Source: Bacteroidota bacterium
GTDB lineage: Bacteria > Bacteroidota > Ignavibacteria > Kapaibacteriales > UBA2268
Length of the DNA: 64,000 nucleotides
Reading direction: 5' to 3'
Assembly: GCA_022707965.1 (NCBI GenBank)
Contig: JAKIZO010000001.1
Location: 692 to 64,691, forward strand
Made by a program: the position numbers and the translations under genes
Notes under the pieces: model-generated
Told to the model about the DNA's origin: nothing
The model's input: the letters and a program-made list of their open reading frames with translations, nothing else
Database searches by the model: none
Shown: one piece after another, positions 10,048 to 64,000 of the stretch
Numbering within the stretch: position 1 is the stretch's first letter
Layout: each line of letters begins with the position of its first letter

Positions 10048-10896
10048 TTACTTAATTAATTTCGCACTTTCAGCTTGAAGAATTTCATAATCAAGAGACT
10101 TGGAATAAACATAAGCTACAATTTGAATATTAGAGGGTTTCCAGTCCTTCGATTGAGGAATAATGTATGAATGATTGAAGTTGAATTTTTTGCCCGCAGT
10201 GATGTCGCTGGACGAAACACGTTCGCCCCAGGCAGAATTAATGCTACCACGAAGGACGTGATTATGAACATAGTCCAGAATATTTTGATTTTCGCCAAGC
10301 CTGTAATCTTTCTGAAATTGAATAATGCTATCTTCCACTATTAGCAGAACCAAATAATCTTGCGAAGTAGAATTTTTTAGATATTGCAAATTGGTAGAGA
10401 CATCGATTTTTCGTGTATTTTCGTTATATGAAACGTTCAATTTAATAGACAAAGAAGGTTCATTTTGAAGTTCAGTTGTAACAAGCGAAGCCCATTTTGT
10501 GTGGCGGGTAATGTAGGAATTGCTGAATTTCTTTCGGTTAATCATACCATTAGGAAGACCGGCATTGCTATTGCCGAAAAATGCGTCGTAGGCGTTGCCT
10601 TCGGGTGTGCGGAAATCATAAGGATGTTCGGGATAAGGTTCGGCGAAAGAACCGACGTGAATTGCAACGGGAATAAGATGCTCGCCATAAGTTTTTTCGA
10701 GTTGCTTGATAACATCGTGTGCTGCGGGACAGTTCCCGCAAGTATAGCCAGTGAAGTCTTCCAGAAGAACTTTACGAACAGAATTGTTCGACGAAGTATC
10801 GATATTTGGATTTTCAGTAACATCACCAGTTATTTGGTCGCAAGAAATAGCAAAAAGCAACAGAAAAGCAAACGCCAGAATATTTATTGTTTTCAT
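10048..10896 (-). CDS. Omp28-related outer-membrane lipoprotein with thioredoxin-like CxxC
   Basis: ATG at 10896 is preceded by AAGGAG; the ORF-track start at 10974 would overlap the upstream gene. Lipoprotein signal peptide (LLLFAISCDQ) and the FTGYTCGNCPAAH motif. Confidence 0.6.
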   Translation of the reverse strand: MKTINILAFAFLLLFAISCDQITGDVTENPNIDTSSNNSVRKVLLEDFTGYTCGNCPAAHDVIKQLEKTYGEHLIPVAIHVGSFAEPYPEHPYDFRTPEGNAYDAFFGNSNAGLPNGMINRKKFSNSYITRHTKWASLVTTELQNEPSLSIKLNVSYNENTRKIDVSTNLQYLKNSTSQDYLVLLIVEDSIIQFQKDYRLGENQNILDYVHNHVLRGSINSAWGERVSSSDITAGKKFNFNHSYIIPQSKDWKPSNIQIVAYVYSKSLDYEILQAESAKLIK

Positions 10897-10906
10897 AGCA
10901 ATCTCC

Positions 10907-12538
10907 TTAAAAAGATGAACTAATCGAGAGATACAAACCGTTTGATGCGGGCACTGTTCGGCAGACACCACCAACGCAAATTATACCTTGATTTTGTTTT
11001 CCATAAGTAAGTTGAATACGATTTGAGCCTACAACATAAGTGAAAGAAGCAGAATAGTAGTGTATTTTCAAGTCGTCAAATTCATTGCCATAGTTGTAAT
11101 CGTCGCTCACAGAGAAATAGAACGAAGGGGAAATCGAGTATTCAATCAAGGCGGTAATCCAATTACCATAACGAGTATCGCCTATATGGGCAGCGGAATC
11201 CTGTTTTGCCCATAAATGCTGCAATTCGAAGCGAATTGCATTTTTGTCGTCTATTCTATAAGTCCCGTCCATAATTAAGAAGTTGCCTTTGATTTTTCCG
11301 TATTTTGGTGCACCTTCGTTTTCTAAAATATCTTTGTCGTAAATCATATTAACGTATGAGAGACTACCTTTGAATTTAGATGAGAATTTTTTAGAAACGT
11401 TTATAGTAAAATCTTGATAGTATAATCTATTGCCAATAGCGAATAAATCTGAATTATACTTGTATTGGCTGGTATGAGTGGTATCGATAGATTGTATTCG
11501 TGAGAAATTAATATTGATATTAGTTCCGTATTTGCCGCCGAAAGCCGATAGAGCTGGCAAAACGTAGTTAATTTCTGCCTGGACGCCCGCTTCACCATTT
11601 AATTTAGTTGCAAAAGGAAACATATTGGGAAGTTTGTAAGGGCTTTGCTTGTTAATTGGGGGAATGTAGCTTAAAGTGAGGTTATTGCCAGCAGCAGACC
11701 TATCAGAACGGAAATCCATATTATCAAGTTTGTGAGCTGATAGAGCGAAACTAAACCCTCGTGTAAAATAAGAACCATTAAGCGACAACCCATAGCCATT
11801 GTTATAAGAATTATTATTTGTAGTATTTGGGTCGTTGTATTTATATCCGAATTCAGCATCGAACAGGAAACTGCTACCGGAAAGCCCTAACCGAGTAGAA
11901 TATGCAAGCACATTTTCAGGCAAACGCAGGAAAGGGTCGTCGTCCTTCTGATACCGGCTAACGACACTACCACCAAGTTTTATATCGAAAGGAAGTTCTA
12001 AATTGGCAAATTCATTAAGAGCGAGATTAAAGTCGCCACCGCGAACAATACCATCGCTCTTGCCCCAAAAAATACGTTGCTTGCCAATAAGCCCGGTTAT
12101 CTCTAAACCATCTGCGGGACGCAACTTAACGCGAAAACCTTCGACAGCGTTGTCAATTCCCAGGGCACGTTCTTCGTAAGCGCGGAAAATCATTCCACTA
12201 CCGAACTGCTCGTAGAAATCACCGACAGTTGCAGAAAGGAACTCATTGCTCCACGAAGCATAACGGTAGGAAACGCCATAACCCTTATATTGTGGGTCGT
12301 AGCCCAAAATTGGATTGAGATAAGCTTCGTAACGCAATCCAGCGTTGAAATTATCAAGTGTATAGTTCAGATTGAGAAAACCGTTAGAAAGGATTTTCTC
12401 TTTGACTTCGGGTGCACCGATGAGACTATCTTTCTTGTAAGTTTGAGCTTCGAGCTGAAAATTCCCACTGATTTTGCCAATATTTTGCGAGAACAAAACA
12501 GAAGGCACTAAAATAAGCAGGTAAATTAACCTTTTCAT
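10907..12538 (-). CDS. Predicted outer-membrane beta-barrel protein (DUF6029-like)
   Basis: 543 aa with a signal peptide (LLILVPSVLFSQ). Alternating beta-strand pattern throughout, aromatic C-terminus (LSISSSF). Upstream partner of the Omp28-like gene. Confidence 0.5.
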   Translation of the reverse strand: MKRLIYLLILVPSVLFSQNIGKISGNFQLEAQTYKKDSLIGAPEVKEKILSNGFLNLNYTLDNFNAGLRYEAYLNPILGYDPQYKGYGVSYRYASWSNEFLSATVGDFYEQFGSGMIFRAYEERALGIDNAVEGFRVKLRPADGLEITGLIGKQRIFWGKSDGIVRGGDFNLALNEFANLELPFDIKLGGSVVSRYQKDDDPFLRLPENVLAYSTRLGLSGSSFLFDAEFGYKYNDPNTTNNNSYNNGYGLSLNGSYFTRGFSFALSAHKLDNMDFRSDRSAAGNNLTLSYIPPINKQSPYKLPNMFPFATKLNGEAGVQAEINYVLPALSAFGGKYGTNININFSRIQSIDTTHTSQYKYNSDLFAIGNRLYYQDFTINVSKKFSSKFKGSLSYVNMIYDKDILENEGAPKYGKIKGNFLIMDGTYRIDDKNAIRFELQHLWAKQDSAAHIGDTRYGNWITALIEYSISPSFYFSVSDDYNYGNEFDDLKIHYYSASFTYVVGSNRIQLTYGKQNQGIICVGGVCRTVPASNGLYLSISSSF

Positions 12539-26634: not shown

Positions 26635-27915
26635 TTATTTGACTATAGTTATTGGTATGGCAACAGTTTCTTTTTGATTGCTAAGGCGAACGAAAAATTT
26701 TCCGGCACCGATTTCATTCAGTTCTATTGTATTTGAATATAGTTTCCCTTCTTTTACTATTTTACCTTCCAGCGAAACAATTGAAAAATCATCGAAATTT
26801 AAATGATTAGCTTCAATTTTAATGAAAGATGTTGCGGGATTAGGATAAACTTTTATCATTTGTGCTAAATCCTTTACGCTTGCAAGCGGGCTAACCCAAA
26901 TGGTAACAAAGTCGTTTGCAGAATAATCAGGGTTGTTTATCAAGGCAGCAACGAATACATCATTATCATAATAATTTCCCCAGAGCATTCCTTCAACTTT
27001 TTTGCCTGCATTAATGGTAATGACGGGTTGATTTTCTGTCGTCTTGAATTCATAAATATTTCCATCATAAGCTGAAACTCTGAATTTTGTGCCTTCGGGA
27101 TTGAACACTAATTCACGGGGACCATCCCAACCAGTTGTCCCAACTTCATATTCGAAAGTTTCATCAATATCGAGAGCGTATCTGAACACTTTACGGCTTC
27201 CGTTAGAAACAACGTAGAGCTGGTTGTCTCTGATTTCAAAATAATTGCCGAATGAACCTGCGGGATAGGATTTAATTTCTTCTTTTGTTGATAAATCATA
27301 AACAGTTACGTAGCTGTCTTCTGCACCCGTTCCTTCGTTAAGCACAAACAATTTTTCGTTGAAAATCTGACACATTTGCACATTCATTTTGGCTTCAATG
27401 GTGTCTTTTGCTTCTTTTGTAGCAAGGTCGATTGAAATCACGTAATTGTGCTCGGGCGACCAGGAACCTGGTGGGGTTACGCGGGTTGAAACATAAAGCA
27501 AGCCATTATCAATGAAAAAGCCATAAACAGTGTGTTCAAATTCAATAGAGTCCACAAGGCTACCGTTAGTAATATTATACTTCCAGATATATCCATTAGT
27601 TTGAAGATAAAGGAATTCTTCATCGAAAAGTGCTCTTACGGGGAAGCTATTCAGTCCGAAAGGGAATTCAATGATTTTCGAAGCGGAAAGCGGTCCCATT
27701 CCAATCGGGTCATTACGCCAGAGTGAGGGCGGTTCGTCTGTGTCGGGGTCGTAATTGCCATCGAAATTGGCGTCGACACCTTTACATAATACATAAAAAT
27801 CGGAATTATAGTGATAAATCATAAGTGGCTGCAAGCCAACGGATACATTAATTTGAGCATTTAAATAGAAAATGCTGACAAACATTAATGCGAAAAACGC
27901 ATATAAATGCTTCAT
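26635..27915 (-). CDS. Secreted, possibly beta-propeller, repeat protein with T9SS C-terminal sorting domain; under cobalamin riboswitch control
   Basis: ATG at 27915 lies 8 nt after GGAGG. Signal peptide (FFALMFVSIFYLNAQ), repeated short beta-strand motifs, and a C-terminal type-A T9SS CTD (KVYPNPATSFIKIE...GKFFVRL...IPITIVK). Confidence 0.7.
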   Translation of the reverse strand: MKHLYAFFALMFVSIFYLNAQINVSVGLQPLMIYHYNSDFYVLCKGVDANFDGNYDPDTDEPPSLWRNDPIGMGPLSASKIIEFPFGLNSFPVRALFDEEFLYLQTNGYIWKYNITNGSLVDSIEFEHTVYGFFIDNGLLYVSTRVTPPGSWSPEHNYVISIDLATKEAKDTIEAKMNVQMCQIFNEKLFVLNEGTGAEDSYVTVYDLSTKEEIKSYPAGSFGNYFEIRDNQLYVVSNGSRKVFRYALDIDETFEYEVGTTGWDGPRELVFNPEGTKFRVSAYDGNIYEFKTTENQPVITINAGKKVEGMLWGNYYDNDVFVAALINNPDYSANDFVTIWVSPLASVKDLAQMIKVYPNPATSFIKIEANHLNFDDFSIVSLEGKIVKEGKLYSNTIELNEIGAGKFFVRLSNQKETVAIPITIVK

Positions 27916-28038
27916 AAAAGAAACCTCCAATTATTTAATATATCTATAAAATCTGAAGGAAATGAAAGAAATATAGTGTCCTTTCGCTTCCCTCATCCAT
28001 CAGTTTGCGCTGATGTACCACACCTGGTGGTCAATGAG

Positions 28039-39464: not shown

Positions 39465-40751
39465 ATGAAAACATATAATTACATAGCAATAGTTTTAGTT
39501 TTGCTACTCAGTTTAGGGCAGGAACTTAAATCTGACGTAATTAAAATAAGCGTCGAGGGAGGAATTTCTCCTGCTACAACATTATTTATCAAAAATTCAA
39601 TTCAGTATGCGGAAGACAGAAAAGCAGAAGCATTGATTATTCAGCTGAATACGCCTGGTGGATTGCTCGACGCGACACGCGATATAGTGCAGGAAATTAT
39701 GGGTGCAAATGTTCCGGTGGTGGTGTGGATTGCTCCATCGGGCGCAAGGGCGGGCTCGGCGGGAGTATTTATCACGCTGGCGGCACACATTGCAGCGATG
39801 GCACCTGGAACAAATATTGGTGCAGCTCACCCGGTTGGTATGGGCGGGGAAAAGATTGATTCGACAATGAACGAGAAGATTACAAACGATGCTGCTGCAT
39901 TTATTCGCTCAATTGCGCACGAACGCAACAAGAACATAGATTGGGCAGAGCGAACTGTTCGGGAAAGCATATCCGCAACTGAGAAAGAATCGTTGCTTGC
40001 GGGTGCGATTGATTTTATTGCTCCAAATTTAGATAGTTTGCTTACGCTGATAGATGGATATGAAGTCAAAATTGCAAGCGGGACGAAGATAATTTCGACC
40101 AAAGGGAAAAAAGTTGTCGAAAAGCAAATGACCTGGCGCGAAAGTCTTCTATTCTGGTTGGCAAATCCCAATATCGCGTATATTTTGCTGATGATAGGAA
40201 TTTATGGGTTGCTTTTTGAGTTTTGGAGCCCCGGGGCAATGTTTCCGGGAATATTGGGGGCAATTTTGTTGATGATTGCATTGTATGCATTGCAGATGCT
40301 GCCGCTGAATTATGCAGGAATTGGGTTAATTTTAATCGCTATTATTTTATTTATACTCGAAATTAAAGTGGTGAGCTACGGATTGCTCACTATTGCGGGT
40401 ATTTTGTCGCTTGCAATTGGCTCAATTATGTTAATAGATGCACCAAATGAAATTATGGACATTTCTATGAATTTAATAATAACAGTTGTGATTATTACAA
40501 CTTTGCTATTTCTTGTGTTAATTGTATTTGGCATAAAAGCACAAACTCGCCGTGCAGTCACAGGAGATTTGGCATTAATCGGGCTGCGAGGTATTGCTAT
40601 GACGGATATTTCGCCGGCACAAAAAGGGCAGGTGAAGGTCTCTGGTGAGATTTGGAGTGCGGTATCTGATGAGGAAATAATGGAAGGAGAAGAAATAGTC
40701 GTGCAAAATGTTCAGAATTTTGTGCTAAAAGTGCGTAAATACATTGCGTGA
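39465..40751 (+). CDS. NfeD-family membrane-bound ClpP-class serine protease
   Basis: 428 aa with a signal peptide, a ClpP-like domain (LNTPGGLLDATRDIV, GSAGVFITLAAHIAAMAPGTNIGAAHP), several TM helices and a C-terminal OB domain. Confidence 0.85.
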   Translation: MKTYNYIAIVLVLLLSLGQELKSDVIKISVEGGISPATTLFIKNSIQYAEDRKAEALIIQLNTPGGLLDATRDIVQEIMGANVPVVVWIAPSGARAGSAGVFITLAAHIAAMAPGTNIGAAHPVGMGGEKIDSTMNEKITNDAAAFIRSIAHERNKNIDWAERTVRESISATEKESLLAGAIDFIAPNLDSLLTLIDGYEVKIASGTKIISTKGKKVVEKQMTWRESLLFWLANPNIAYILLMIGIYGLLFEFWSPGAMFPGILGAILLMIALYALQMLPLNYAGIGLILIAIILFILEIKVVSYGLLTIAGILSLAIGSIMLIDAPNEIMDISMNLIITVVIITTLLFLVLIVFGIKAQTRRAVTGDLALIGLRGIAMTDISPAQKGQVKVSGEIWSAVSDEEIMEGEEIVVQNVQNFVLKVRKYIA

Positions 40752-42122
40752 TACTTTTTTGCCAATTATTTGTCCATCAAAGTTTTCTTTGTATATTTCA
40801 GTAATATAGGCAAAGGCATCTACCTGGTCGTCGTGTTTGCCATCGGGGAATTGAGAAAGTTCCTGTTCGAATTCAGATAACCATTCAGAATAGTCAGGGA
40901 AGTAGATTTTACCAGCTTCGAGCATTGCGGCAATGGGAATCGCACGAGTGAATTTATCCGAGTAAGGTTTAATTTCTTTGACAGGAATTCCAAGAGAAGA
41001 AGCTTGACGGACCAAAGCGGATTGATATTGAACTGCCTCTATCCCCCACAAGCGAACGTTGTATTTCACTGATAAGCTTCTTAATATTTCAATGTGTTTT
41101 GTTGGTTGGCAGCGCGTGCGGACTATGTCTCTAATCAATACTGATTTTTCACAAGTAACAGAAAAGACCAGGAAAACGCTCCAATCAGCATTATGATTTG
41201 TGGAGATTGCCAAATCTGCAGTTGCGAAATTTATGCAATCAGTTAAATCAACCGACCGCCCGTCGAGCAGAACGTGGTCTCCAATTTGCTTGAAATATTT
41301 GAAATTTTCGCGTTTGAATAGAGAATTTGCGGTGTCGGAGGGTTCTTGTTGGTATAGAGCATTGAACCAATATGAGCCTAATTGCTTTTGTATTTGCTGC
41401 AAAGTGTCGATGGGAAAGCGTTCTTGCCATAGAGCTTCGCCGGGTTTCCTGCCGAGTGGGTCGTCGCTGGTTGCAATGGCAGGGATTTTCAACAGCTGCC
41501 AATCACTTGAAAAATCTTCGAGCAAACGACCGACTAAATCTTGCTTATGCCAGCGTGTCATAATAATAATGCAGGAACCGTTGGGTTCGAGCCGCGAATA
41601 GGCAGTGGAGACGAACCAATCCCAGATATTTTGTCGAATAGTTGGGCTGTGGGCTTCTTCGGCGTTTTTTATTGGGTCGTCTATGATGAGCAAGTCGGCG
41701 CCTTTTCCGGTGAGTGCTCCTCCGGCACCTGCTGTCATCATAGTGCTGTTGTTGGAAAGCTCGAAGAAGTTCGCAGCAGATGCTTCATTAGAGATTGCTA
41801 CGTTGAAATATTTGCCGTAGCTATCAATTAAAGCACGCACTTTGCGACCCCAATATGCCGCGAAATTTGCTTCATAAGAGGTAAGCAGTAATCTTTTCCC
41901 GCTGAAAGTGGTTAAATACCAGAACGGAAAATACTTCGAAATGAGTTCGCTTTTTCCGTGCCGTGGCGGCAAACATACAATCAAACGTTGTTTTTTGCTG
42001 AAACTGATGCGATAAAGAATGGTATCGATAAATGCAATATGTGGTGGAATTTGATAAACACCATTTGTTATGATTTTTGCCAGCAGAGCAGGCGAAAGTG
42101 TATATTTGCCGATTTCTCTCAT
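40725..42122 (-). CDS. Phage-type terminase large subunit (TerL-like), apparently intact and isolated
   Basis: 465 aa. Walker A (LPPRHGKSE), Walker B (ADLLIIDDP), nuclease-domain Asp region (FATADLAIS) and a terminal HDDQVDAFAYI motif. Confidence 0.8.
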   Translation of the reverse strand: MREIGKYTLSPALLAKIITNGVYQIPPHIAFIDTILYRISFSKKQRLIVCLPPRHGKSELISKYFPFWYLTTFSGKRLLLTSYEANFAAYWGRKVRALIDSYGKYFNVAISNEASAANFFELSNNSTMMTAGAGGALTGKGADLLIIDDPIKNAEEAHSPTIRQNIWDWFVSTAYSRLEPNGSCIIIMTRWHKQDLVGRLLEDFSSDWQLLKIPAIATSDDPLGRKPGEALWQERFPIDTLQQIQKQLGSYWFNALYQQEPSDTANSLFKRENFKYFKQIGDHVLLDGRSVDLTDCINFATADLAISTNHNADWSVFLVFSVTCEKSVLIRDIVRTRCQPTKHIEILRSLSVKYNVRLWGIEAVQYQSALVRQASSLGIPVKEIKPYSDKFTRAIPIAAMLEAGKIYFPDYSEWLSEFEQELSQFPDGKHDDQVDAFAYITEIYKENFDGQIIGKKVSRNVFTHF

Positions 42123-55124: not shown

Positions 55125-55610
55125 TTATTTTTCGATGCTTTTCTTGATATTCAGAATATCTTCGAATAGTTTTTCCTCGTTCTGATAAGAAGAAAAGCGA
55201 AGCCGCAGGTAACGTTTTCGTTCGGGAAGTTTAATAAGTGCAATTTTAAATTTTGAACGGATGCGAATAGATTTTTCATATTTAATGATAATTCTTTCAA
55301 TGTCCGTAAATTTATACTTTTTCTCTTTTTTGCCGACACGGAAAACAATATAATCATTGCCGATTATGATAAATCTGCGTTTTATAGAATTAACAAGCAA
55401 TGAAATAGAGGCAATGACAATAAACAAAGCAAGCAAAATGGTAATTGGGTCGAGCAGGCGAATTGTGATGTATCCGCCTTCGATTGTGCCTCTCAAAATA
55501 CTGTAAAACACAAGCACAATTGCGTCAATTGCAATTGTCTGATAGTAGAAATCGAGCCTTTGAGGATAGATTTTTTCAAGGTTGTTTAAATCGTTCATAT
55601 TACAACTCAT
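55125..55610 (-). CDS. Hypothetical small membrane protein
   Basis: Two TM helices, then a basic soluble domain. Start is at ATG 55610 or 55598, abutting or overlapping the murG stop at 55600-55602. Confidence 0.4.
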   Translation of the reverse strand: MSCNMNDLNNLEKIYPQRLDFYYQTIAIDAIVLVFYSILRGTIEGGYITIRLLDPITILLALFIVIASISLLVNSIKRRFIIIGNDYIVFRVGKKEKKYKFTDIERIIIKYEKSIRIRSKFKIALIKLPERKRYLRLRFSSYQNEEKLFEDILNIKKSIEK

Positions 55611-56694
55611 AGCCAATTGTTTTTAATACTTCGATAGCAACATCACGAGCTGCATTTGGTCGAGCAAGTTTTCGGGCAGCGTCGGACATACGGGCTAATT
55701 TGTCATCGGAAAACAGTGAATTTATCATATCAAGCAGTATTGCCTCAATTTCGTCGTTCAGAATGATTTCGGCAGCACCATTTTTTTTGAGGATTTCGGC
55801 GTTGAAAAGCTGTTCGTTGTTGGAAGCAGATGGAAGTGGAACCAAAATCGCAGGTTTTGCTGCAACAGTGAGTTCCCACACGGTAGTTGCACCCGAACGG
55901 CAAACAACTAAATCGGCGGCTGCGTAGTAGTCGGCAATATCGTCGATAAATTCTTTAACAATCAGATTTTCGTGCTTAATGCCGTTGTACTGATAATATT
56001 TGCCAGTTTGCCAGAGGACGAAATATCCGCTTTCGAGCAGGCTATCGAGGTGCTTTTCGACGGCTTTGTTAATTGCGGAGGCACCCAGACTTCCACCAAA
56101 AACAAAGATAGTTTTTTGGTCGTGTGGAATGCCAAGTTTGCTGCGAGCATCGATTTTGCTCGGAAAGTTCAGAAATTGCTTGCGAATAGGATTGCCAAGA
56201 GTAACAATTTTATCGTGATATGATTTTTCGAAGTAGTTTATGCTTTCATCAAAAGATGTGATTATTTTCGTAGCATATTTGCAAAGCGATTTAATTGCTT
56301 TTCCGGGACGCACATTTGATTCGAGCAGGAATAGAGGCAAATTGTGCAAACGAGCAGCGTAACCAGGGGGGAAACTCAGATAAGCACCTGTTGCGATTAC
56401 AGCAGAAATATTGTTTTCGCGTATCAGTTTTCTACATTTATTAATTGCACTTGCAATTTGAAATGGAAGCAAAAGAATAGAGAGTGATTTCTTTATTCCC
56501 GAAATATTAATAGCATTAAAGTTGTAACCAAGCGACGGCACCACCCTACTTTCAATTTTATCAGCAGTGCCGACGAAATGGAAATCGCATCTGCCACCGG
56601 TAATATCATTGAGTTGCTCGCAAACAGCAATTGCAGGAAAAAGATGTCCGCCAGTGCCGCCTGCTGCAATTAATATGCTTATTTTATCATTCAT
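55600..56694 (-). CDS. murG: UDP-N-acetylglucosamine--N-acetylmuramyl-(pentapeptide) pyrophosphoryl-undecaprenol GlcNAc transferase
   Basis: ATG at 56694 (MNDKISILIAAGGTGGHLFPA). GGSLGA and the C-terminal GT28 domain are present. Confidence 0.9.
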   Translation of the reverse strand: MNDKISILIAAGGTGGHLFPAIAVCEQLNDITGGRCDFHFVGTADKIESRVVPSLGYNFNAINISGIKKSLSILLLPFQIASAINKCRKLIRENNISAVIATGAYLSFPPGYAARLHNLPLFLLESNVRPGKAIKSLCKYATKIITSFDESINYFEKSYHDKIVTLGNPIRKQFLNFPSKIDARSKLGIPHDQKTIFVFGGSLGASAINKAVEKHLDSLLESGYFVLWQTGKYYQYNGIKHENLIVKEFIDDIADYYAAADLVVCRSGATTVWELTVAAKPAILVPLPSASNNEQLFNAEILKKNGAAEIILNDEIEAILLDMINSLFSDDKLARMSDAARKLARPNAARDVAIEVLKTIGYEL

Positions 56695-56770
56695 ATTACA
56701 AATATAATAAAAAGTTGCGAAATATTTTTTTTTGAGAAGAAAATGTTTAATCATCAATTATTATTCATAA

Positions 56771-56803
56771 AACAAAAGGGGCAATCGAAGAAGGTTGCCC
56801 CCT
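56771..56803 (-). terminator. Rho-independent terminator after the vWA-OmpA gene
   Basis: On the minus strand, a GGGGCAA-loop-TTGCCCC hairpin (56802-56779) is followed by TTTTGTTT. Confidence 0.8.
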
Positions 56804-56834
56804 TAAAATTCATATCTAATTTGAAAAATTATCA

Positions 56835-58160
56835 TTAATTATTTTTTTCAGGTGAAGTAATGATGACAATTTCGGTTCGGCGGTTGAGCTGCCTGCCGAA
56901 TTCGTCTTTGTTGCTTGCGATTGGACGGCGTTTGCCATAGCCAACTATGGACATTCTACTTTTGTCGACGCCTTTCGAAGCAAGATAATTCATTACGCTT
57001 TCGGCTCGCTTTTGCGAGAGAACGTAGTTGAATGCGTCGGTTCCAACGTTGTCAGTATGCCCTTCGATAATAATTGAAACATTCGGCTTATTAATCATAA
57101 ATTCAGCGAGGATGTCGAGTTCTTTAATAACCTCAGGCAAATTATACTGTCCTGTTTTGAACAAAAGATTTTCAATGATAAGTTTACGTCCAAGTTCGAC
57201 AATTGGAATAACCTTTTTCACAAGCTTATTATCTGTCGGGTTAAAGAGAGCAATTTCAATTGAATCAGGAATAACGGGTTCGTCTGAACGGTAGCTAAGA
57301 ATATACAGATTAGTGAGTTGTTTGGAGAAATTATCTAAAATATTGGAAAAGGGCAAATCAAGGTCGAAAGCAGCACCACGAGTGGAACGCGAGATTATTT
57401 CGTAATTTTTCAAGCGAGGCGGGGCAATGCTAAAGACGCGTATGTCGTTTTTGATGAGCTTTTCGATAATAGATTGAGTGGTGTGTCGGGTTGTGCCCAT
57501 ACCTTTTTCGCCTGCTTGATGGTAAGGAGCGTCGGTGATAAGAACAACGCAACGAACAGCATCAGGACGGAAGCGGAAGCGGGTTGCTTCGTCGAGAGCT
57601 TCGAGAGCGTTTTCTTTTTCGTCGCCACCGCCAAAAGCACGCACGGGAGCGAGCCAACCAATGAAGTCGGCAACTTTATTTGTCGGTTTGAACACTTTGC
57701 TAATATCGTCGTCGAAAAGAATTAGTCCTAATCTATAATCAATACCGCGTTTAGTCAGATTAGTTGTAAAATCAGCAATATTGTCTTTTACTTGATTAAT
57801 ATATGTTTGCATCGAACCCGTAATATCAATGGCAAAAATAAAATCGACCAAAACATTGTCAACGACAGGGATTTTTTCGACTTTGGTGACTTTTTTTGGG
57901 ACGCCTTTTTCGAAAACGAATAGGTTATCGGATGTAAGAGTATCAACAGGTTCGCCGAGTTTATTATAAGCTTCTATTATAATACGCATTTCAGGGAATT
58001 TGGAAATATCCACGTTTCGGATGGAAATTTCAATTTCTTTCCGAGCCGATTCTACTTTTGTTTCCTGCAAAATTTCGATGCGATTGAACTTATCTTGAGA
58101 AAAAAGCGATGAAACGAAAAAAAATACGAACAAACTAAAAACTGATTTTCTGATAATCAT
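56835..58160 (-). CDS. Secreted von Willebrand factor A domain protein with C-terminal OmpA/MotB-like peptidoglycan-binding domain
   Basis: 441 aa with a signal peptide and a vWA MIDAS-like motif (FAIDITGSM, LITDAP). OmpA_C motif IIEGHTDNVGTDAFNYVLSQKRAESVMNYL...NRRTEIVI. Confidence 0.8.
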   Translation of the reverse strand: MIIRKSVFSLFVFFFVSSLFSQDKFNRIEILQETKVESARKEIEISIRNVDISKFPEMRIIIEAYNKLGEPVDTLTSDNLFVFEKGVPKKVTKVEKIPVVDNVLVDFIFAIDITGSMQTYINQVKDNIADFTTNLTKRGIDYRLGLILFDDDISKVFKPTNKVADFIGWLAPVRAFGGGDEKENALEALDEATRFRFRPDAVRCVVLITDAPYHQAGEKGMGTTRHTTQSIIEKLIKNDIRVFSIAPPRLKNYEIISRSTRGAAFDLDLPFSNILDNFSKQLTNLYILSYRSDEPVIPDSIEIALFNPTDNKLVKKVIPIVELGRKLIIENLLFKTGQYNLPEVIKELDILAEFMINKPNVSIIIEGHTDNVGTDAFNYVLSQKRAESVMNYLASKGVDKSRMSIVGYGKRRPIASNKDEFGRQLNRRTEIVIITSPEKNN

Positions 58161-58184
58161 TTTAATTCTTTATTTTATTTATAC

Positions 58185-58226
58185 ATAAAAAATTGCCCCA
58201 ACTGAATAGAAACAGTGGGGCAATTA
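58185..58226 (-). terminator. Terminator-like hairpin between the 486-aa gene and the vWA-OmpA gene
   Basis: On the minus strand, AATTGCCCCA (58225-58216) pairs with TGGGGCAATT (58200-58191), followed by TTTTT. It ends only about 25 nt before the ATG at 58160. Confidence 0.6.
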
Positions 58227-58241
58227 TAGAAATACACAGAA

Positions 58242-59702
58242 TTATATTGTAATTCTCAATAAAGGTGAAATCATAAAGAAGTTTTTGATTTCATAAGGAC
58301 GCTCGGTACGCAACGGAGTAGAATATTTTGCTTCGAGATAGAACCAGTTGCTAAACAGTGGCAACCAGATGCGTCCTAACATAATCTGATTAGAGTATTG
58401 AATGCTTGCACCGAATGGGAAAATTGCCTGATTGCGGTATTCAACTTTTGCAAACATCCAATCAGCAAATTCTTTTGGTTTGTATGTTTTAAGTCCCGTA
58501 ACATTTTCGACAGTAATTTCGTAGTTCAGTCCGTTTGTTGTGTTCGGGTAATGATAAAGAGCAGTTTCGCGAACTTCCGAGTAATTAATACCGAGGTCGA
58601 AACGGAAGAAGTTTTCAGGATTAGATTTGTCGAGCCACCAGTTATAGAAAACAGTTGCATAACCGGTAGAGCGAATAACAGGAGCGACAGCTGCAATAGT
58701 AGAAATATCAGCACGCACATCACCTTCCTTAAATTGGATTTGGTCGAAATGAGCTGGGACGTAGGTGCCGTAGGTTGTTCTATCAATGCCATAAGTAGTG
58801 AGCTGTTCGAGAGGAATTTCAGCGGTGAAGGCAACGCCTAATGCAGGGTGGAAAGGCATATGGAAATCAAAGCCTGCAATTAATTTTCCGCCGGGGGCTG
58901 CATTTAATACACGTTCAGGAACCCACGAGAATAGGTCGTTGTCGCCGAGCCCGGAAGTCATACGATATCCACCGCCTAAATAAGCATTAATCAAGTAAGG
59001 AATTCCCTGGCGTGTAGAATAATCGCTATTAACATATAGAGGTCTTTGGAGAATAATTTTGGATTCGCCAGCAGACCAGAATGGGTAACCTACGTGGTCG
59101 GAGCCAACTATCGAGCGGAGCCAAAATCCCGTTGCACCAACTTTAAGAGATTGCTCGAAAAGCGAAACAGTGAAAGCTTGCTTGACGTTTGTTGGTTGCT
59201 TTATATAATCAAGAATAACCTCAGCTTGGGAAGCTTGCAAAGGATATTCAATAGGAACTTCTGTATAGCAATAGTCTCTGCGAGCGACGTCTGCTGGAAA
59301 TCCTCTATCTTTTCCCTGATAAACATATTCACCTGTAAGGAAGCGAACAAGTTTATCGCCCATATAGTATTCGATTTGAACTGCATTCATCGAGGCTTTG
59401 CCACAAGTAATCATAAGCAGTTCATAAGGGTCGCGTTCATCTTCGCGAGGAGCGGCGAGGATTTCAATATTTTGCTCATTGAGGTCGCTTTTGCTGAACC
59501 CCATAAAGAGGAATGTTTGATAAATTTGAATTTGAAGGTCGGGTTCGCACACCTTCCAGCGAGGGAAATATTTAATAATTTCGGGGTCGATAGTTGTTAA
59601 GGAATCAATTATTTCCCTTTCATTAGTAATTCTACCTGTTTGAGCATTGACAACACTTAGTGCTGCGATTGCTAAGATAACTGTCAAGAAAAATCTTTTC
59701 AT
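58242..59702 (-). CDS. Hypothetical secreted protein with C-terminal barrel-like domain (paralogue of the upstream gene)
   Basis: 486 aa with a signal peptide (AALSVVNAQ). The C-terminal part shares FGASIQY..(8 aa)..IWLPL with the 579-aa neighbour. Confidence 0.5.
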   Translation of the reverse strand: MKRFFLTVILAIAALSVVNAQTGRITNEREIIDSLTTIDPEIIKYFPRWKVCEPDLQIQIYQTFLFMGFSKSDLNEQNIEILAAPREDERDPYELLMITCGKASMNAVQIEYYMGDKLVRFLTGEYVYQGKDRGFPADVARRDYCYTEVPIEYPLQASQAEVILDYIKQPTNVKQAFTVSLFEQSLKVGATGFWLRSIVGSDHVGYPFWSAGESKIILQRPLYVNSDYSTRQGIPYLINAYLGGGYRMTSGLGDNDLFSWVPERVLNAAPGGKLIAGFDFHMPFHPALGVAFTAEIPLEQLTTYGIDRTTYGTYVPAHFDQIQFKEGDVRADISTIAAVAPVIRSTGYATVFYNWWLDKSNPENFFRFDLGINYSEVRETALYHYPNTTNGLNYEITVENVTGLKTYKPKEFADWMFAKVEYRNQAIFPFGASIQYSNQIMLGRIWLPLFSNWFYLEAKYSTPLRTERPYEIKNFFMISPLLRITI

Positions 59703-59738
59703 AGTATTCTTTCTATTTAATTTAACTAATCTACTTAA

Positions 59739-61478
59739 TTAAAAAGTAAAAATAAATCTTGCGGTTGGCATAAACACACTGTTTAGTTCCCAATCGCGAA
59801 GTTTGCCCTTCATAGCAGCGGAATAGCCTTTAGCATCGAAGCGAACGGCAACGCGGTTGCGAACAATTGGAACAGACAGCCAGATATTCGCAAAGATTGA
59901 TTCATCAAAATACTGGATAGAAGCACCATAAGGAGTGCGTGCATTTTTAGCCATAAAGTCGAGTTTAGCACTAATGCCCGTTACATTATCAGAAGACTTT
60001 TTAGTATATTTAGTTTTTACAATTCCATTCTCTTCGTCTTCGATAACTTTGTTGTACCATCTATCGGCAGTATAGGTTGTTCCGCCGAGCCCAAAACGCA
60101 GCCAGTAGTCGTCATCGATAGCAATACCAAATGTATAGTGCAATGAAGCGTTAAATCTAATCATATAATCTTCGTCGTTGAATAAAGCATTTCGCATTGC
60201 AGCAATATCGGAATAATCATCTATGCTCTTTTTACGATTTTTGTAATCAGGTTCGTTTGCATCACCGAAAATGTAACCAAATGAGAAATTAAAGATACCA
60301 CTTTGAGGAATAACTTTAATCGGGAAATCGCCTGATGCAGAGATACCAACACTGCCGGAAGTAAGTTTTCTATCTACATCGTAGAAGTCTTTCGAAAGGG
60401 AAGCCCAACCGGAAGTAGGCAAAATGAAACCAAGTTTCACATTTTCCCAAATAGCCGATAGAGTTAATCTTTCGCTCCAAAGGCTTGGATAGTTTATTTC
60501 ATCGATACCGTATTTTAGCTCGACACCGTATTGAGGTAGGCTCTGGTTCGTAACAGTGGAAAGAGTATCGACATAACCGTCGGAATAAACAATCATAGGC
60601 TGTTCGTAGTGGCGCCAGCTAATCAAATCGGAGCTTAAAATTAATTCATTTTTGCGAAGTTCGTAATCAAGAGGTTGTCCATCGGAAATTCTCTTAAATG
60701 TTTGAACGTCGAAAGGAGTAATTTCGTATTCGTTTTTAACAAGCGATTGAGAAGTTCCGTAAACTTTTGGAGCAAATTTTTTGAAAGTGCCGAAGCCCTG
60801 AGCTTCGAGGGTTTTATTTTCAACGTTACCCTGACGGAAAGCAGTAACAATAAGTTCATACATATTGTATGCACGGTATTCATTTTCGTCGAGGGTAAAA
60901 GCAAAAAGTTCAGGATTAGTATAAACATTGCGAGGTGGCACCTGACGCAATGATTTTTCAATATCATCTTCGCTATCGTAGGAAACAAGCATTGCAATGA
61001 TAGATGAGGGGACAATCTGGTCGCGTTCCATACGAGTAGTAACAACGTAAACGTTCTGAACAGTTGCGATGGATTGACCTTGCGATTGCAAGCTCTGGAT
61101 AATACAATCGATGTCGTCGGGTATATCGTAACCACGTGCAAGCATTCCTTGCTTAATTGCAATATCGCTTGCACCGGCTTCGACCTGGGAGCGGACGAAG
61201 TCTACGATAGTTCTATCGGCATTTTTGACGCAAGCTTCGTCTGCAACAGCAACGGTGCGGGTAAGCGCTTCGTCCTGGACACGAATAGCTTTGCGAATAT
61301 CGCCAATATCTTTGATACGGTAGATAGAAATTGTTGAAAATCTGTAATTTTTGAACTTGTTTAAAATACTTTCGAGTTTGATGCGGAAAGATTCATCAAT
61401 TTGAGCATTAGCCTGGAAGCTCAAAGCGACCCCGAAAAGTATACTTAGAATTAATACCGATGATAATTTCTTCATCAT
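59739..61478 (-). CDS. Hypothetical secreted protein with C-terminal outer-membrane barrel-like domain
   Basis: 579 aa with a signal peptide (ALSFQANAQ). Beta-strand-rich C-terminal half ending in ARFIFTF (aromatic OMP-type terminus). Shares the YGASIQY..IWLSVP motif with the 486-aa protein. Confidence 0.5.
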   Translation of the reverse strand: MMKKLSSVLILSILFGVALSFQANAQIDESFRIKLESILNKFKNYRFSTISIYRIKDIGDIRKAIRVQDEALTRTVAVADEACVKNADRTIVDFVRSQVEAGASDIAIKQGMLARGYDIPDDIDCIIQSLQSQGQSIATVQNVYVVTTRMERDQIVPSSIIAMLVSYDSEDDIEKSLRQVPPRNVYTNPELFAFTLDENEYRAYNMYELIVTAFRQGNVENKTLEAQGFGTFKKFAPKVYGTSQSLVKNEYEITPFDVQTFKRISDGQPLDYELRKNELILSSDLISWRHYEQPMIVYSDGYVDTLSTVTNQSLPQYGVELKYGIDEINYPSLWSERLTLSAIWENVKLGFILPTSGWASLSKDFYDVDRKLTSGSVGISASGDFPIKVIPQSGIFNFSFGYIFGDANEPDYKNRKKSIDDYSDIAAMRNALFNDEDYMIRFNASLHYTFGIAIDDDYWLRFGLGGTTYTADRWYNKVIEDEENGIVKTKYTKKSSDNVTGISAKLDFMAKNARTPYGASIQYFDESIFANIWLSVPIVRNRVAVRFDAKGYSAAMKGKLRDWELNSVFMPTARFIFTF

Positions 61479-61530
61479 TTTATATCCCTTGTAAAATCAT
61501 AATTTCAATAATAATTTTTTAATTATCTGA

Positions 61531-61552
61531 GCGGAGGCATCGAAGTCTCCGC
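61531..61552 (-). other. Intercistronic GC-rich hairpin between the 759-aa and 579-aa genes
   Basis: GCGGAG (61531-61536) and CTCCGC (61547-61552) form a 6-bp stem with a 10-nt loop. No T run follows on the minus strand, so it is probably not a full terminator. Confidence 0.4.
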
Positions 61553-61567
61553 CCAGGAATATAATAA

Positions 61568-63847
61568 TTATCTACGTCTTGGACCGCCACGTTCAGGTGA
61601 ATAATCGATGCTAACAGTAACTCTTTGAGCACTTGAACGCGATTGTTTATTATTTATCGGATTAATTGCCACAACATTAACAGGAATTGTTAAAGTACCT
61701 TTAATTTTTGTTTCGCCGCGTGGCAAATTGCCGGACATTTCGAGGTTAATGTTATAAGTACCGTCGCCCGCATCTTCGATTTCCGGACCGGCAGCAAGTT
61801 CGTAAGCGTTTAAAGTACCAGTTTTTTCGGAAATAGTTTTAGCTTCGGCACGAACAGTAGCCAGAGTACCTTCGACGCCCGTAGTAGGTTTGGAAATTCT
61901 TATACCTTTGATGGAAATCTTTATTCTTTGTGGTTGTCCGGAAACTTCAACTCTCATATCGCGAGTATTGATTGAAGCAGGTTCTTGCTTGATTTCGAAT
62001 GTACGAGTTGGGAAGAGTTCCACTTCAACACCCGAAGCAGGCTGAACCCAGGTAACACGGATTGAGATATTATCTTTATCAGGAGTATAGACAAAATTCA
62101 TATTACGAGTAATTGCAAGCCCTTCAACTGGTGGCTTTTGCATATCTTTATCAAAGTATGCGTAAATACGGAACTGGTTAGCAGCAATTTTGTTGCCTGA
62201 TTCTGGTATTACATCAAGCAGAAGCGAACCACCATAATAAGCATAAGCATCGATAGTATTTACTATCTTACGTTCGCTTTCATCAGTCAGACCAGTTCTA
62301 AATATTCCGAGAGTAGCTGATTGAGTAGCACGGCGAGATTGTAAATTATGAACAACTTCGATTTTGTATTCTCCGGGTGAAAGTTTGGCTTCGACGGTAC
62401 CGCGATAATCACGTTTTTCACCCTGACGTGGTGTTGAGACACCCGAACCAGGAATTTCGTCCAATGCTTTGAAAGAAATTCTTGAAACAACATTTCCACT
62501 CTTATCAAGCACATTACCTGTAACAGTGTTCTGACCAGGCTGATAAGGAGAAATTGAAATATCGAAGACGTGATTAACTGCATCGAAGCAATACATAGCA
62601 GAAGCCATATTGATAGTAGGTTCTGCAATGTTCGGTTTAGGAGTAATTACACGAACGTTAAATTCGATGCTGCCACGGTTCTGGTCGAAATTGGAGGACA
62701 TACCAGGTGCCAGCAATTGAGCAATGTAGCTGAACAGCCTAATTTTACCAATTAGTTCAGTTGCTTCGCGGTCAGACATAGCAACTTCGATAGCAGCCTG
62801 GATTTTTTCGTTGAATTTATCAATATCGCGAGTTTTGATGAACTCATCAGCATCAGGAAGACTGAATTTTTCGAGATTATTTTGAAGTTCTTTGAGAACT
62901 TTTCGCAGATCGCGAACGGTCAATTGAACAGTACCGATATTGACAGTTGCATCGTCGCTAATATCGGCAGCACTCTGGTCTGAACGAACACCAAGAATAC
63001 GGTTAGTGCGAGAGGAGAAACGCAATTTATACCAACCTGCTCTGCTTGGTGGCTGGAAATTAACTATAAATGAACGTTTATTTAGCCCGCTTGCAGTAGC
63101 AAGTTTTCTTGTTTCGGTTTCGGAATAGAAAAATACGCTATCCTGAGATAAGTTTGGTGGTGCATACGAAGGACCAATGACAACTTCGCTGCTTTTAGGA
63201 TAAACAGGGGAAATATCAGCAGTTGATTTCAAATTAGCAAAAACAAGTCTATCGAAAGTAGCCCTTGAATCTAAATTAAGCTGGCGAACAGCAAGGAGTT
63301 CCCAATCTTCACCATTAGGACCGGGGAATTTTTGTCCCGGCTGCATTTTAAGAAAATCTATATTATTCTTCTTGATATATTCGTCTGTTTGGAACATTGG
63401 AGCACTTGTCGGGTCCTGACTGCTGCTGTAAAAGATTTGATATTGAAGTTCAGCAACATTAGCAAGTTCGACAAGTTTCTGCAAACGTTCGACGTGTTCT
63501 TTGTCGGTTTCACCCTCGCGTCTTTTCAGAGACGTGGTTACGTCAGTAACACCAACTTCAACACTGTAACGACGATAGGATTTGATGTCCGAGCCAATCA
63601 TTTCACGCATATTGATGCCAGGAGGAGTAATGGTGATTTCGTCCTGCGGACGAGTGTTAATTCCTTCGGTGCCGGCACCGGATTGAAGTTGAGTAAGAAT
63701 ACTTTCCACAATTTTCATTGTTTCTTGTTGTTTTTTGTGGAGATGCTCTTCTGCTTCGTCTCGTTCAACGATGATAATCAGAAGTTCCAATACAACGGCA
63801 AGATAAAGTACGAAATATACTTTCCCTGCTCCGCCGCCTTTTGACAT
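61568..63847 (-). CDS. Hypothetical bitopic membrane protein: short N-tail, one TM helix containing Glu21, coiled coil, long beta-rich extracytoplasmic region
   Basis: 759 aa. GGAGGG lies 8 nt upstream of the ATG at 63847. N-terminus MSKGGGAGKVYFVLYLAVVLELLIIIVERDEAEE. No family recognised by eye. Confidence 0.55.
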   Translation of the reverse strand: MSKGGGAGKVYFVLYLAVVLELLIIIVERDEAEEHLHKKQQETMKIVESILTQLQSGAGTEGINTRPQDEITITPPGINMREMIGSDIKSYRRYSVEVGVTDVTTSLKRREGETDKEHVERLQKLVELANVAELQYQIFYSSSQDPTSAPMFQTDEYIKKNNIDFLKMQPGQKFPGPNGEDWELLAVRQLNLDSRATFDRLVFANLKSTADISPVYPKSSEVVIGPSYAPPNLSQDSVFFYSETETRKLATASGLNKRSFIVNFQPPSRAGWYKLRFSSRTNRILGVRSDQSAADISDDATVNIGTVQLTVRDLRKVLKELQNNLEKFSLPDADEFIKTRDIDKFNEKIQAAIEVAMSDREATELIGKIRLFSYIAQLLAPGMSSNFDQNRGSIEFNVRVITPKPNIAEPTINMASAMYCFDAVNHVFDISISPYQPGQNTVTGNVLDKSGNVVSRISFKALDEIPGSGVSTPRQGEKRDYRGTVEAKLSPGEYKIEVVHNLQSRRATQSATLGIFRTGLTDESERKIVNTIDAYAYYGGSLLLDVIPESGNKIAANQFRIYAYFDKDMQKPPVEGLAITRNMNFVYTPDKDNISIRVTWVQPASGVEVELFPTRTFEIKQEPASINTRDMRVEVSGQPQRIKISIKGIRISKPTTGVEGTLATVRAEAKTISEKTGTLNAYELAAGPEIEDAGDGTYNINLEMSGNLPRGETKIKGTLTIPVNVVAINPINNKQSRSSAQRVTVSIDYSPERGGPRRR

Positions 63848-64000
63848 ACTAAATACCCTCCAAATTTATAGATTTTTCAAAATGTCTAAAATATTGTAGT
63901 GTAAAATACGACATATTTCAAATATTACTAAACAACTTATTAACGAATTTTTAAAAATCTAACAAAAAATATGTTAATTGCAAAATATATTTTCTCAATG

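Follow-up and report, generated by a model that had tools for sequence, protein, structure and literature searches.

To our knowledge, the only systems that carry energy from the inner to the outer membrane are Ton, Tol, GldLM, the flagellar stator, Agl-Glt and Zorya, and each of them opened a field. Here we examine a four-gene module, its genes designated A to D, in a stretch of 64,000 nucleotides (the window; positions 692 to 64,691 of the forward strand of contig JAKIZO010000001.1, GenBank assembly GCA_022707965.1) from a Bacteroidota bacterium placed in the Ignavibacteria, order Kapaibacteriales. With three unannotated protein families, a strict gene order in at least 80 species-level genomes, an invariant acidic residue in its membrane anchor and a GldL-like partner gene in relatives, the module is a well-delimited candidate for another energy-carrying trans-envelope system. 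If it is one, it would be the first envelope feature to set apart the Kapabacteria, a widespread uncultured lineage of digesters, sediments and mats; if it is a static tether, it would represent a new form of outer-membrane-to-wall stapling by way of a vWA-OmpA protein.

Several described systems invite comparison. Tol-Pal has a stalk, TolA, that is energised by a 5:2 motor, and in Bat (Bacteroides aerotolerance) operons the membrane-anchored vWA proteins BatA and BatB are accompanied by a MoxR ATPase, by DUF58 and by TPR proteins. Judged by analogy, the closest known system in working principle is GldLM, a motor of GldL5GldM2 architecture with an Arg9-Glu49 pair, in which, as in the known ion-driven envelope motors, conserved protonatable residues in the membrane helices couple ion flow to movement (bioRxiv 10.1101/2022.01.28.478170). 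In its list of parts the closest analogue is Agl-Glt with CglB: in Myxococcus xanthus, GltG and GltJ are bitopic and cross the periplasm, GltA and GltB are mutually dependent outer-membrane barrels, CglB is a vWA protein with a metal ion-dependent adhesion site (MIDAS), and the genes of the AglRQS proton motor lie away from those of some partners (PMC9946355).

The four open reading frames (ORFs) of the module lie exactly where a preliminary description of this DNA, made from the letters alone, had put them:

61568-63847, minus strand: gene A, 759 aa
59739-61478, minus strand: gene B, 579 aa, with an N-terminal region (about residues 26-310) followed by a C-terminal region homologous to the predicted barrel region of C
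58242-59702, minus strand: gene C, 486 aa
56835-58160, minus strand: gene D, 441 aa, with, by Pfam, an N-terminal region (about residues 25-100), a vWA domain (106-266), a linker and an OmpA/MotB-type peptidoglycan-binding domain (333-427)

The gaps A-B, B-C and C-D measure 89, 36 and 81 bp and are AT-rich; the GC content of the ORFs is 0.40-0.42, compared with 0.394 for the window. Each of the four proteins has a single hydrophobic 19-residue window, N-terminal in every case.

These genes are inherited as a unit. A profile scan restricted to one genome per species found 258 genomes that encode a relative of A, and gene order was counted in the 80 best loci of those genomes by searching the ORFs of all six frames with D and with a profile of each of the other three proteins. 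The series A-B-C-D is complete, in the same order and on one strand, in 62 of the 80 loci, and the remaining 18 carry a prefix of that order cut by a contig end; none is interrupted or rearranged. The preliminary description had left the conservation of the neighbourhood to a survey, and the synteny proves to be without exception. In several genomes (e.g., loci L062 and L069-L071) the ORF spans, taken from stop to stop, abut or overlap, which is consistent with tight gene packing. The flanks vary: an HD-domain gene lies upstream in 21 of the 80 loci and a murG-like GT28 gene is present in 8, nothing else being commoner, and when the flanking ORFs of approximately 110 loci were clustered, no family occurred in more than 21 loci and no MotA/ExbB-like gene was present. 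Since the order A-B-C-D is constant while the flanks change, the conserved unit consists of exactly these four genes. The same order is kept in divergent clades of A at approximately 30% identity to the A of the window (P0414, P0410), and it recurs in a second, unsorted sample of loci. The unit also has variants. One Kapaibacterium lineage (L087/L088, L090 and those loci of L092-L103 that have sufficient flank) has a short A of approximately 540 aa followed by two C-like paralogues without D, and loci of the P0433 type have A (621 aa), then a B-like and then a C-like gene. The evolutionary core would appear to be A plus two paralogous barrels, with D usual but dispensable.

By record title, nearly all hosts are metagenome-assembled genomes (MAGs) of Candidatus Kapaibacterium/Kapabacteria, Ignavibacteria, Chlorobiota or Bacteroidota. 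No cultured isolate was found among approximately 200 loci, and the roughly 120 matches to a DNA pattern of the A motif are all MAGs; the records titled 'Melioribacter roseus' and 'Chloroherpeton thalassium' are likewise MAGs and not type strains. A number of module-bearing MAGs (L011, L013, L016 and many more) are titled 'uncultured Hyphomicrobiales', 'Chromatiales', 'Desulfobulbaceae', 'Chloroflexota', 'Patescibacteria' or 'Chitinophaga pinensis', and these look like mislabelled or contaminated bins. In the literature we found no description of an A-B-C-D cluster or of new GldL-like families.

Protein A begins with a 9-residue cytoplasmic tail carrying K3 and K9, followed by a transmembrane helix at about residues 10-27 and then by ERDEAEE; the lysines, the single helix and the acidic stretch together make A a bitopic protein with its N-terminus inside and approximately 730 residues outside. 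An AlphaFold2 model of A (40 sequences; predicted local distance difference test [pLDDT], 84) consists of a helix at 8-55 (anchor and stalk), a mixed alpha/beta region at 60-310, a helical region at 311-386 and three immunoglobulin (Ig)-like beta-sandwich domains at 391-516, 559-651 and 664-749. The portrait of A as a bitopic inner-membrane protein with a long, beta-rich periplasmic part is thus borne out by the single helix and the three modelled sandwiches, and the region earlier called a coiled coil corresponds to the predicted long helix 8-55 together with the helical region 311-386. A Foldseek search with the model placed generic tandem-Ig arrays such as titin on top.

The most striking property of A is where it is conserved. 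Residues 1-80 have a mean column conservation of 0.89-0.94, as against approximately 0.5-0.6 for the remainder of the protein, and the invariant positions run nearly continuously from V10 to T72; among them are Glu21, midway along the membrane helix, and R29 and D30, where that helix ends. The N-terminal motif GAGKVYFVLYLAV.LELLIIIVERD.AE is kept in relatives that have little else in common. Nothing else in the system is as conserved as this anchor, and a membrane helix that was a mere tether would not be so constrained. No Pfam or NCBIfam family matched the A of the window, and no Pfam family matched any of 40 members of its family. Two proteins of approximately 800 aa that carry a Por_Secre_tail domain, P0474 and P0479, share with A the beta-sandwich-plus-helix module of residues 244-381 (E=7e-20 and 8e-18), so this module is not limited to A and is found on secreted or surface proteins too.

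B, C and D have signal peptides of the cleavable type (…ANA/Q, …VNA/Q and …LFS/Q, respectively) and no lipobox Cys, and the earlier account of B and C as secreted proteins stands. C has a small, conserved N-terminal alpha/beta domain (approximately residues 40-170) in which Cys52 and Cys145 are invariant and Cys100 nearly so. In an AlphaFold2 model built from 36 sequences (pLDDT 80) this domain is followed by approximately 14 long beta-strands at residues 176-485, with a pLDDT of 80-90 in the strands, and nearly all of the top 50 matches of the model to the PDB by Foldseek are outer-membrane barrels (OccAB2, AlgE, TamA, FapF, PcoB, BamA). We predict from the model that residues 176-485 of C form an outer-membrane-barrel-like domain. 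B is related to C (BLASTP E=5e-5): its last 130 or so residues align with C by hhalign at 88% probability (E=3e-6), and a weak collinear match lies further upstream, between B 319-400 and C 195-294. By this homology the C-terminal region of B would be barrel-like as well. The barrel-like character once ascribed to both proteins therefore holds for C at the level of a predicted structure, and for B only by way of its kinship with C. A C-terminal Phe is a classic barrel-assembly signal; the B family ends in …ARFIVxF with an invariant Phe, and the C of the window ends in …SPVLRLTI and its family in …LRLTI, that is, in Ile and not in an aromatic residue.

Neither B nor C of the window matched a Pfam or NCBIfam family, and no Pfam match was consistent across the 36-40 members examined of each family. 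Matches to Tail_P2_I and DHHA2 in the families of A, B and C scored far below the cutoffs and were set aside as noise. Searches with the profiles of A, B and C against all PDB sequences returned chance-level matches only (e.g., NADH peroxidase at E=0.16 and PilQ at E=2.1), and PADLOC matched none of the three. Wherever sources give their homologues a name, it is only 'hypothetical protein'.

Among the four proteins only D falls in known families. Its Pfam scores exceed the cutoffs for VWA (42.8 bits, cutoff 23.8), VWA_4 (42.1, cutoff 27) and OmpA (70.2 bits, cutoff 27.2), and VWA_2 is matched also, in keeping with the vWA and OmpA/MotB domains previously assigned to it. Its vWA domain contains a MIDAS-like motif, D112-x-T114-G-S…D180/E183…T209-D210 (canonical, DxSxS…T…D), in which the canonical Thr position is apparently acidic. 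At least 95% of 65 syntenic homologues conserve D112, T114, G115, D180, E183, T209 and D210, and the same is true of H368, T369, D370, N378, L381, S382, R385 and A386 in the peptidoglycan-binding motif. From its sequence, the vWA site probably binds metal. In NCBIfam, PADLOC and the PDB, D found matches within the OmpA-like domain only, all of them under the equivalog cutoffs (Pal, PorE, MotB, TssL): D scores 85.4 with the Pal model TIGR02802 (cutoff 125.35) and 76.8 bits with the PorE model (cutoff 600), and the PDB matches are to Pal, OmpA, OprF and the C-domains of MotB. Identity as a defense system was considered and rejected, as PADLOC gave nothing beyond a match of the D OmpA-like domain to ZorB.

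Searches of Pfam, NCBIfam, PADLOC and PDB profiles thus place A, B and C nowhere, as one would expect if the module is, as first described, no recognised system, and membership in known systems fails wherever it has been tested. It is very probable, in our judgment, that A to D function together in the envelope, with A belonging to the inner membrane, B and C to the outer, and D to the peptidoglycan. The predicted locations of A, C and D fit the earlier proposal that these parts could bridge the whole envelope.

How they might work together is a matter for more cautious statement. That A to D form one trans-envelope complex of Kapabacteria/Ignavibacteria-type bacteria, with A coupling a membrane motor to B and C and with D as a clamp, is a serious possibility that we would place a little short of even. 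In such a complex A, probably as an oligomer, would span the periplasm and dock on the periplasmic domains of an outer-membrane pair of barrels, B and C. The OmpA-like domain of D would fix the assembly to the cell wall, and the vWA site of D would grip a partner, be it B, C, A or a ligand. A could then serve an ion-driven motor as its axle, the part that GldM plays in type IX secretion and gliding, where the motor is GldL5GldM2; we favor an axle over a passive anchor because hardly any variation is seen in the membrane helix, with its invariant Glu, or in the 50 residues that follow it. The stator would be a membrane protein that we call X, or an equivalent, and A would pass force or a conformational change to B and C. 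At the outer membrane the output could be adhesion, surface movement, export through the barrels or active tethering of the envelope.

X is a polytopic membrane protein of 276-500 aa encoded, in divergent lineages, directly upstream of an A-like gene at a distance of 3-300 bp. Such X-A pairs occur in L116-L118, L163, L174, L177 and L194, and loci L106-L111 have the order X'-A'-X-A. The run X-A-B/C-B/C-D is complete in L106 and L107; L109 has the same run up to a contig end before D, and the X'-A'-X-A contigs L108, L110 and L111 stop sooner still. An iterative search with X collected 20 ORFs, two of which repeat those of L117 and L118. X has no match in Pfam or NCBIfam. The conserved core is a helix hairpin, AY.GAA.LI..IGLRGLK…P…AIsLE..LL.LLG.T.yF.pE(E/D), whose second-helix Glu is present in all 13 distinct primary X ORFs; among the X' paralogues (n=5) it is replaced by Gln in L108 and by Thr in L110. 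For comparison, N-terminal sequences of GldL/PorL (n=5) and GldM/PorM (n=4) were recovered from PDB entries. In the hhalign alignment of X with GldL, the hairpin falls on transmembrane helices 1 and 2, GAA on GAA, the Glu on Glu49 and F.P.E on FEPVE. As it stands, the likeness of X-A to gldL-gldM lies in gene arrangement and motif and is not a demonstrated homology.

Three MAGs (RDXM01, JANYIG01 and CALCNX01) hold both an X-A pair and a separate paralogue of A. In all three the second A locus belongs to the P0414/L158 clade, whose members carry A-B-C(-D), and is cut before any downstream gene. Because these MAGs contain an X-A pair together with a separate A locus, it is plausible that the stator is encoded away from the module. 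X probably belongs to the system as a fifth, membrane-embedded component that is absent from the window locus; as it is not at the locus in the lineage of the window, it would have to be encoded elsewhere or be replaced.

The duplicated pairs have features of their own. In L107 (4433-9590) the membrane pair is duplicated in tandem, X'-A' coming before X-A, and L108-L111 are alike in this. The A' proteins of these loci have no Glu in the membrane and carry instead Arg-x7-Tyr-Leu, placed ahead of and within the helix and with the spacing of Arg9…Tyr17 in GldM, and the X' hairpin (…AAFLLEALFLL…AFSPSED) looks even closer to GldL than does that of X. PDB single-sequence searches with A' and X' gave nothing relevant. 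DAIUAL01 (L117, L118, L209) is a MAG with three or more paralogous A genes, of which two stand in X-A pairs. Some genomes show an expanded family. In L118 a Caps_assemb_Wzi gene (10261-11970, minus strand; 50.5 bits) is convergent with and adjoins an X-A pair that lacks B, C and D.

A number of observations weigh against one complex with A on a motor, and they are best considered together. Neither the window, nor the 10 kb that lie beyond it (L001/L002), nor the flanks of any of the 80 canonical loci contain X, and therefore a stator for this locus is hypothetical. The hhalign score of X with GldL is not significant (P=0.019, probability 2.4%). Compared with the four GldM/PorM N-termini by hhalign, both residues 1-120 and the full length of A gave probabilities of only 0.1-0.2%, and models of GldM, GldL, ExbB/D, MotA/B and TolQ/R matched neither A nor X. 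GldM/PorM is not among the top 50 Foldseek matches of the A model. GldM and A also differ: GldM has Arg9 and no acidic residue in its helix, whereas A has Lys9 and the invariant Glu21, and the helix of GldM is followed by a helical D1 domain where A has its alpha/beta region. The barrel matches of C are weak (best E=1.1e-3, TM-score no higher than 0.41), so C has no close structural relative. D is missing from L087, from L090 and from the nine loci of L092-L103 that have sufficient flank, and in the window a terminator-like hairpin stands between C and D.

The further reading, that X, A, B, C and D make up a separate ion-driven trans-envelope nanomachine restricted to the Kapabacteria and their relatives, is tentative, and we lean against it. 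X would be stator-like, A an axle, B and C an outer-membrane barrel pair and D a wall-anchored vWA clamp; in evolution the machine would stand apart from GldLM, MotAB, ExbBD, TolQR and Zorya or be at most a very distant relative of theirs, and it would power an outer-membrane process such as motility, adhesion or export.

Set beside GldLM/PorLM, the module and its relatives show several likenesses. A crosses the inner membrane once and has a long periplasmic part, with Ig-like domains at its end, that could extend as far as the outer membrane, X precedes A in relatives as gldL precedes gldM, the first helix of X is rich in Gly and Ala and the second holds a Glu, and the hosts belong to the same broad phylum. 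The preliminary description credited A with the topology of GldM/PorM while disclaiming homology, and it was right on both counts: the one N-terminal helix and the Ig-like end domains are there, and GldM homology is undetectable, the Pfam and NCBIfam GldM models at E<=1 having matched neither A, nor 40 members of its family, nor divergent A and A' proteins. X is larger than GldL and in most members has two extra helices. GldLM works with GldK/GldN rings, whereas the partners of A are two barrels and a vWA-OmpA protein; gldK and gldN are never found beside the X-A pairs of relatives, and no gldL-like gene lies at the window locus or at the 80 canonical loci, where the gene upstream of A is variable.

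Agl-Glt, compared by architecture only, shares with the module a bitopic stalk, paired barrels and a vWA protein. GltG and GltJ, however, are TolA/TonB-like and A is not, the phylum differs, and CglB is a surface lipoprotein with no OmpA domain whereas D has no lipobox and carries a peptidoglycan-binding domain, so that D should stay periplasmic. We know of no gliding in the uncultured hosts of the module. Like the module, Tol-Pal joins the inner membrane, the peptidoglycan and the outer membrane through a bitopic stalk and an OmpA-like binder, yet nothing in the module matches TolQ, TolR, TolA or TolB, A has no TolA domain III, and the module loci contain no tol genes; D is below the Pal cutoff and is not a lipoprotein, and barrels and a vWA protein are foreign to Tol-Pal. 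With Bat the module has in common vWA envelope proteins in an operon of the Fibrobacterota-Chlorobiota-Bacteroidota group, and neither A to D nor the annotated neighbors in six assemblies of the locus include MoxR, DUF58, BatA/B or TPR proteins. The C-terminal domain of D has the same wall-anchoring fold and motif as MotB/PomB, MotY and ZorB; in those systems the OmpA-like domain is on the stator subunit itself, whereas in the module it is on a separate secreted vWA protein.

The main rival to a motor is a static envelope staple, a bridge fixing the outer membrane to the peptidoglycan and the inner membrane that would supplement or replace Pal, OmpA or Lpp tethers and set the width of the periplasm. 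We consider it unlikely. A staple would be well served by the complete OmpA-type peptidoglycan-binding motif of D and by the long, rigid-looking array of domains in the A model, and it would need no stator, a gene for which is found at none of the 80 canonical loci nor at the window locus; every homology test against motor proteins failed, moreover. A staple nevertheless leaves unexplained why the membrane helix of A and the 50 or so residues after it should be the most conserved part, with an invariant Glu within the membrane, and why an X gene should be joined to the same run in relatives. Nor does it sit easily with the lineage that drops D, the sole peptidoglycan binder, and keeps A and two barrels.

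A dedicated system that exports or assembles a surface polymer or protein, with B and C as outer-membrane conduits, A as a scaffold or co-polymerase-like component and D as a wall anchor, seems to us decidedly unlikely. AlgE is such a conduit for alginate, FapF for amyloid and BcsC for cellulose. AlgE (probability 0.84) and FapF (0.85) are among the better fold matches of C, but the matches of C are weak and spread over barrels of all kinds. An N-terminal periplasmic domain like that of C is frequent in such exporters, and one X-A pair (L118) adjoins the Wzi-like capsule-assembly outer-membrane protein; the module has no constant neighbor that encodes a synthase, a glycosyltransferase, an ABC transporter or a substrate, however, the downstream GT28 gene being present in only 8 of the 80 loci.

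The organism already has a type IX secretion system (T9SS), as it encodes Por_Secre_tail proteins, and the module might be an accessory of that system or of a gliding apparatus. Genes for such cargo lie at 26635-27930 and a short way upstream of the module, the topology of A is GldM-like, the T9SS-sorted P0474 and P0479 share residues 244-381 of A, and PorE likewise ends in an OmpA-like domain. Against this, no locus links the module to gldK/L/M/N, sprA, porV or any other gene of the T9SS, T9SS models match none of A, B and C, and the module is confined to one lineage whereas T9SS is phylum-wide; we regard the accessory role as having only a slim chance. It and the export reading are compatible with a motor, and could coexist with it. 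That the four genes are unrelated and adjacent by chance is exceedingly improbable, for all that hairpins occupy two of the three internal gaps and one of them is terminator-like, in view of an order and orientation that are the same in all 80 loci despite their changing flanks and that persist in clades of A at only approximately 30% identity.

The noncoding elements of the locus bear on how the genes may be expressed:

63848-64000, minus strand: AT-rich intergenic region upstream of A, cut by the end of the window; 153 bp, 19.6% GC
61529-61556 (about), minus strand: GC-rich hairpin in the A-B gap, with no U-tract, by fold prediction
58187-58225, minus strand: terminator-like hairpin AATTGCCCC…GGGGCAATT followed by TTTTTT in the C-D gap, by fold prediction
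56769-56804 (about), minus strand: intrinsic-terminator-like hairpin and U-tract after D, at the module end, by sequence and fold

In other assemblies of the same DNA (e.g., L001) the intergenic region upstream of A is complete, measuring 184 bp with 17.9% GC, so that of the long AT-rich region first described the composition stands and the length does not. A divergent HD-domain gene bounds this region at its far side, and A is therefore the first gene of the module. A promoter is presumably located in the AT-rich region; TTGAAA-17-TACAAT at 63921-63893 is sigma-70-like by consensus match alone, and GGAGG lies 9 nt ahead of the ATG of A. The fold of the A-B gap (61479-61567) has an energy of -26 kcal/mol (z=-4.25), with 0 of 200 shuffles equally stable, and its hairpin is possibly an mRNA-stabilizing or attenuating element. 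The C-D gap (58161-58241) folds at -21.6 kcal/mol (z=-4.79), again with 0 of 200 shuffles equally stable. Because a terminator-like hairpin and TTTTTT follow C, transcription of D may be lower than, or separate from, that of A to C in this genome, and the two hairpins within the module suggest graded or separate expression of A, of B and C, and of D. The terminator after D that had been described was found again, as a hairpin and U-tract at about 56804-56769, with the form AAGGGGGCAA-N10-TTGCCCCTTTTGTTTT and a fold energy of -18 kcal/mol (z=-2.17); an automatic terminator scan overlooked it because its loop is 10 nt. The genes 3' of this terminator vary among genomes.

Elsewhere in the window, an ORF with Terminase_6N and Terminase_6C domains (40725-42122, minus strand) stands alone between NfeD-type and dehydrogenase genes, with no phage genes seen beside it. 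The Por_Secre_tail proteins mentioned above are encoded at 26635-27930 (minus strand) of the window and at 3732-7529 of L001; in L001 an Ig-repeat Por_Secre_tail protein of 1265 aa lies approximately 2.5 kb upstream of the module. At 55125-56757 (minus strand) of the window, a murG-like GT28 gene overlaps a gene for a small membrane protein of 163 aa that belongs to no family. The 163-aa gene accompanies GT28 in seven other loci, in both orientations to the module, and occurs without GT28 in L050; to judge from this pattern, GT28 and the 163-aa protein may be a functional pair.

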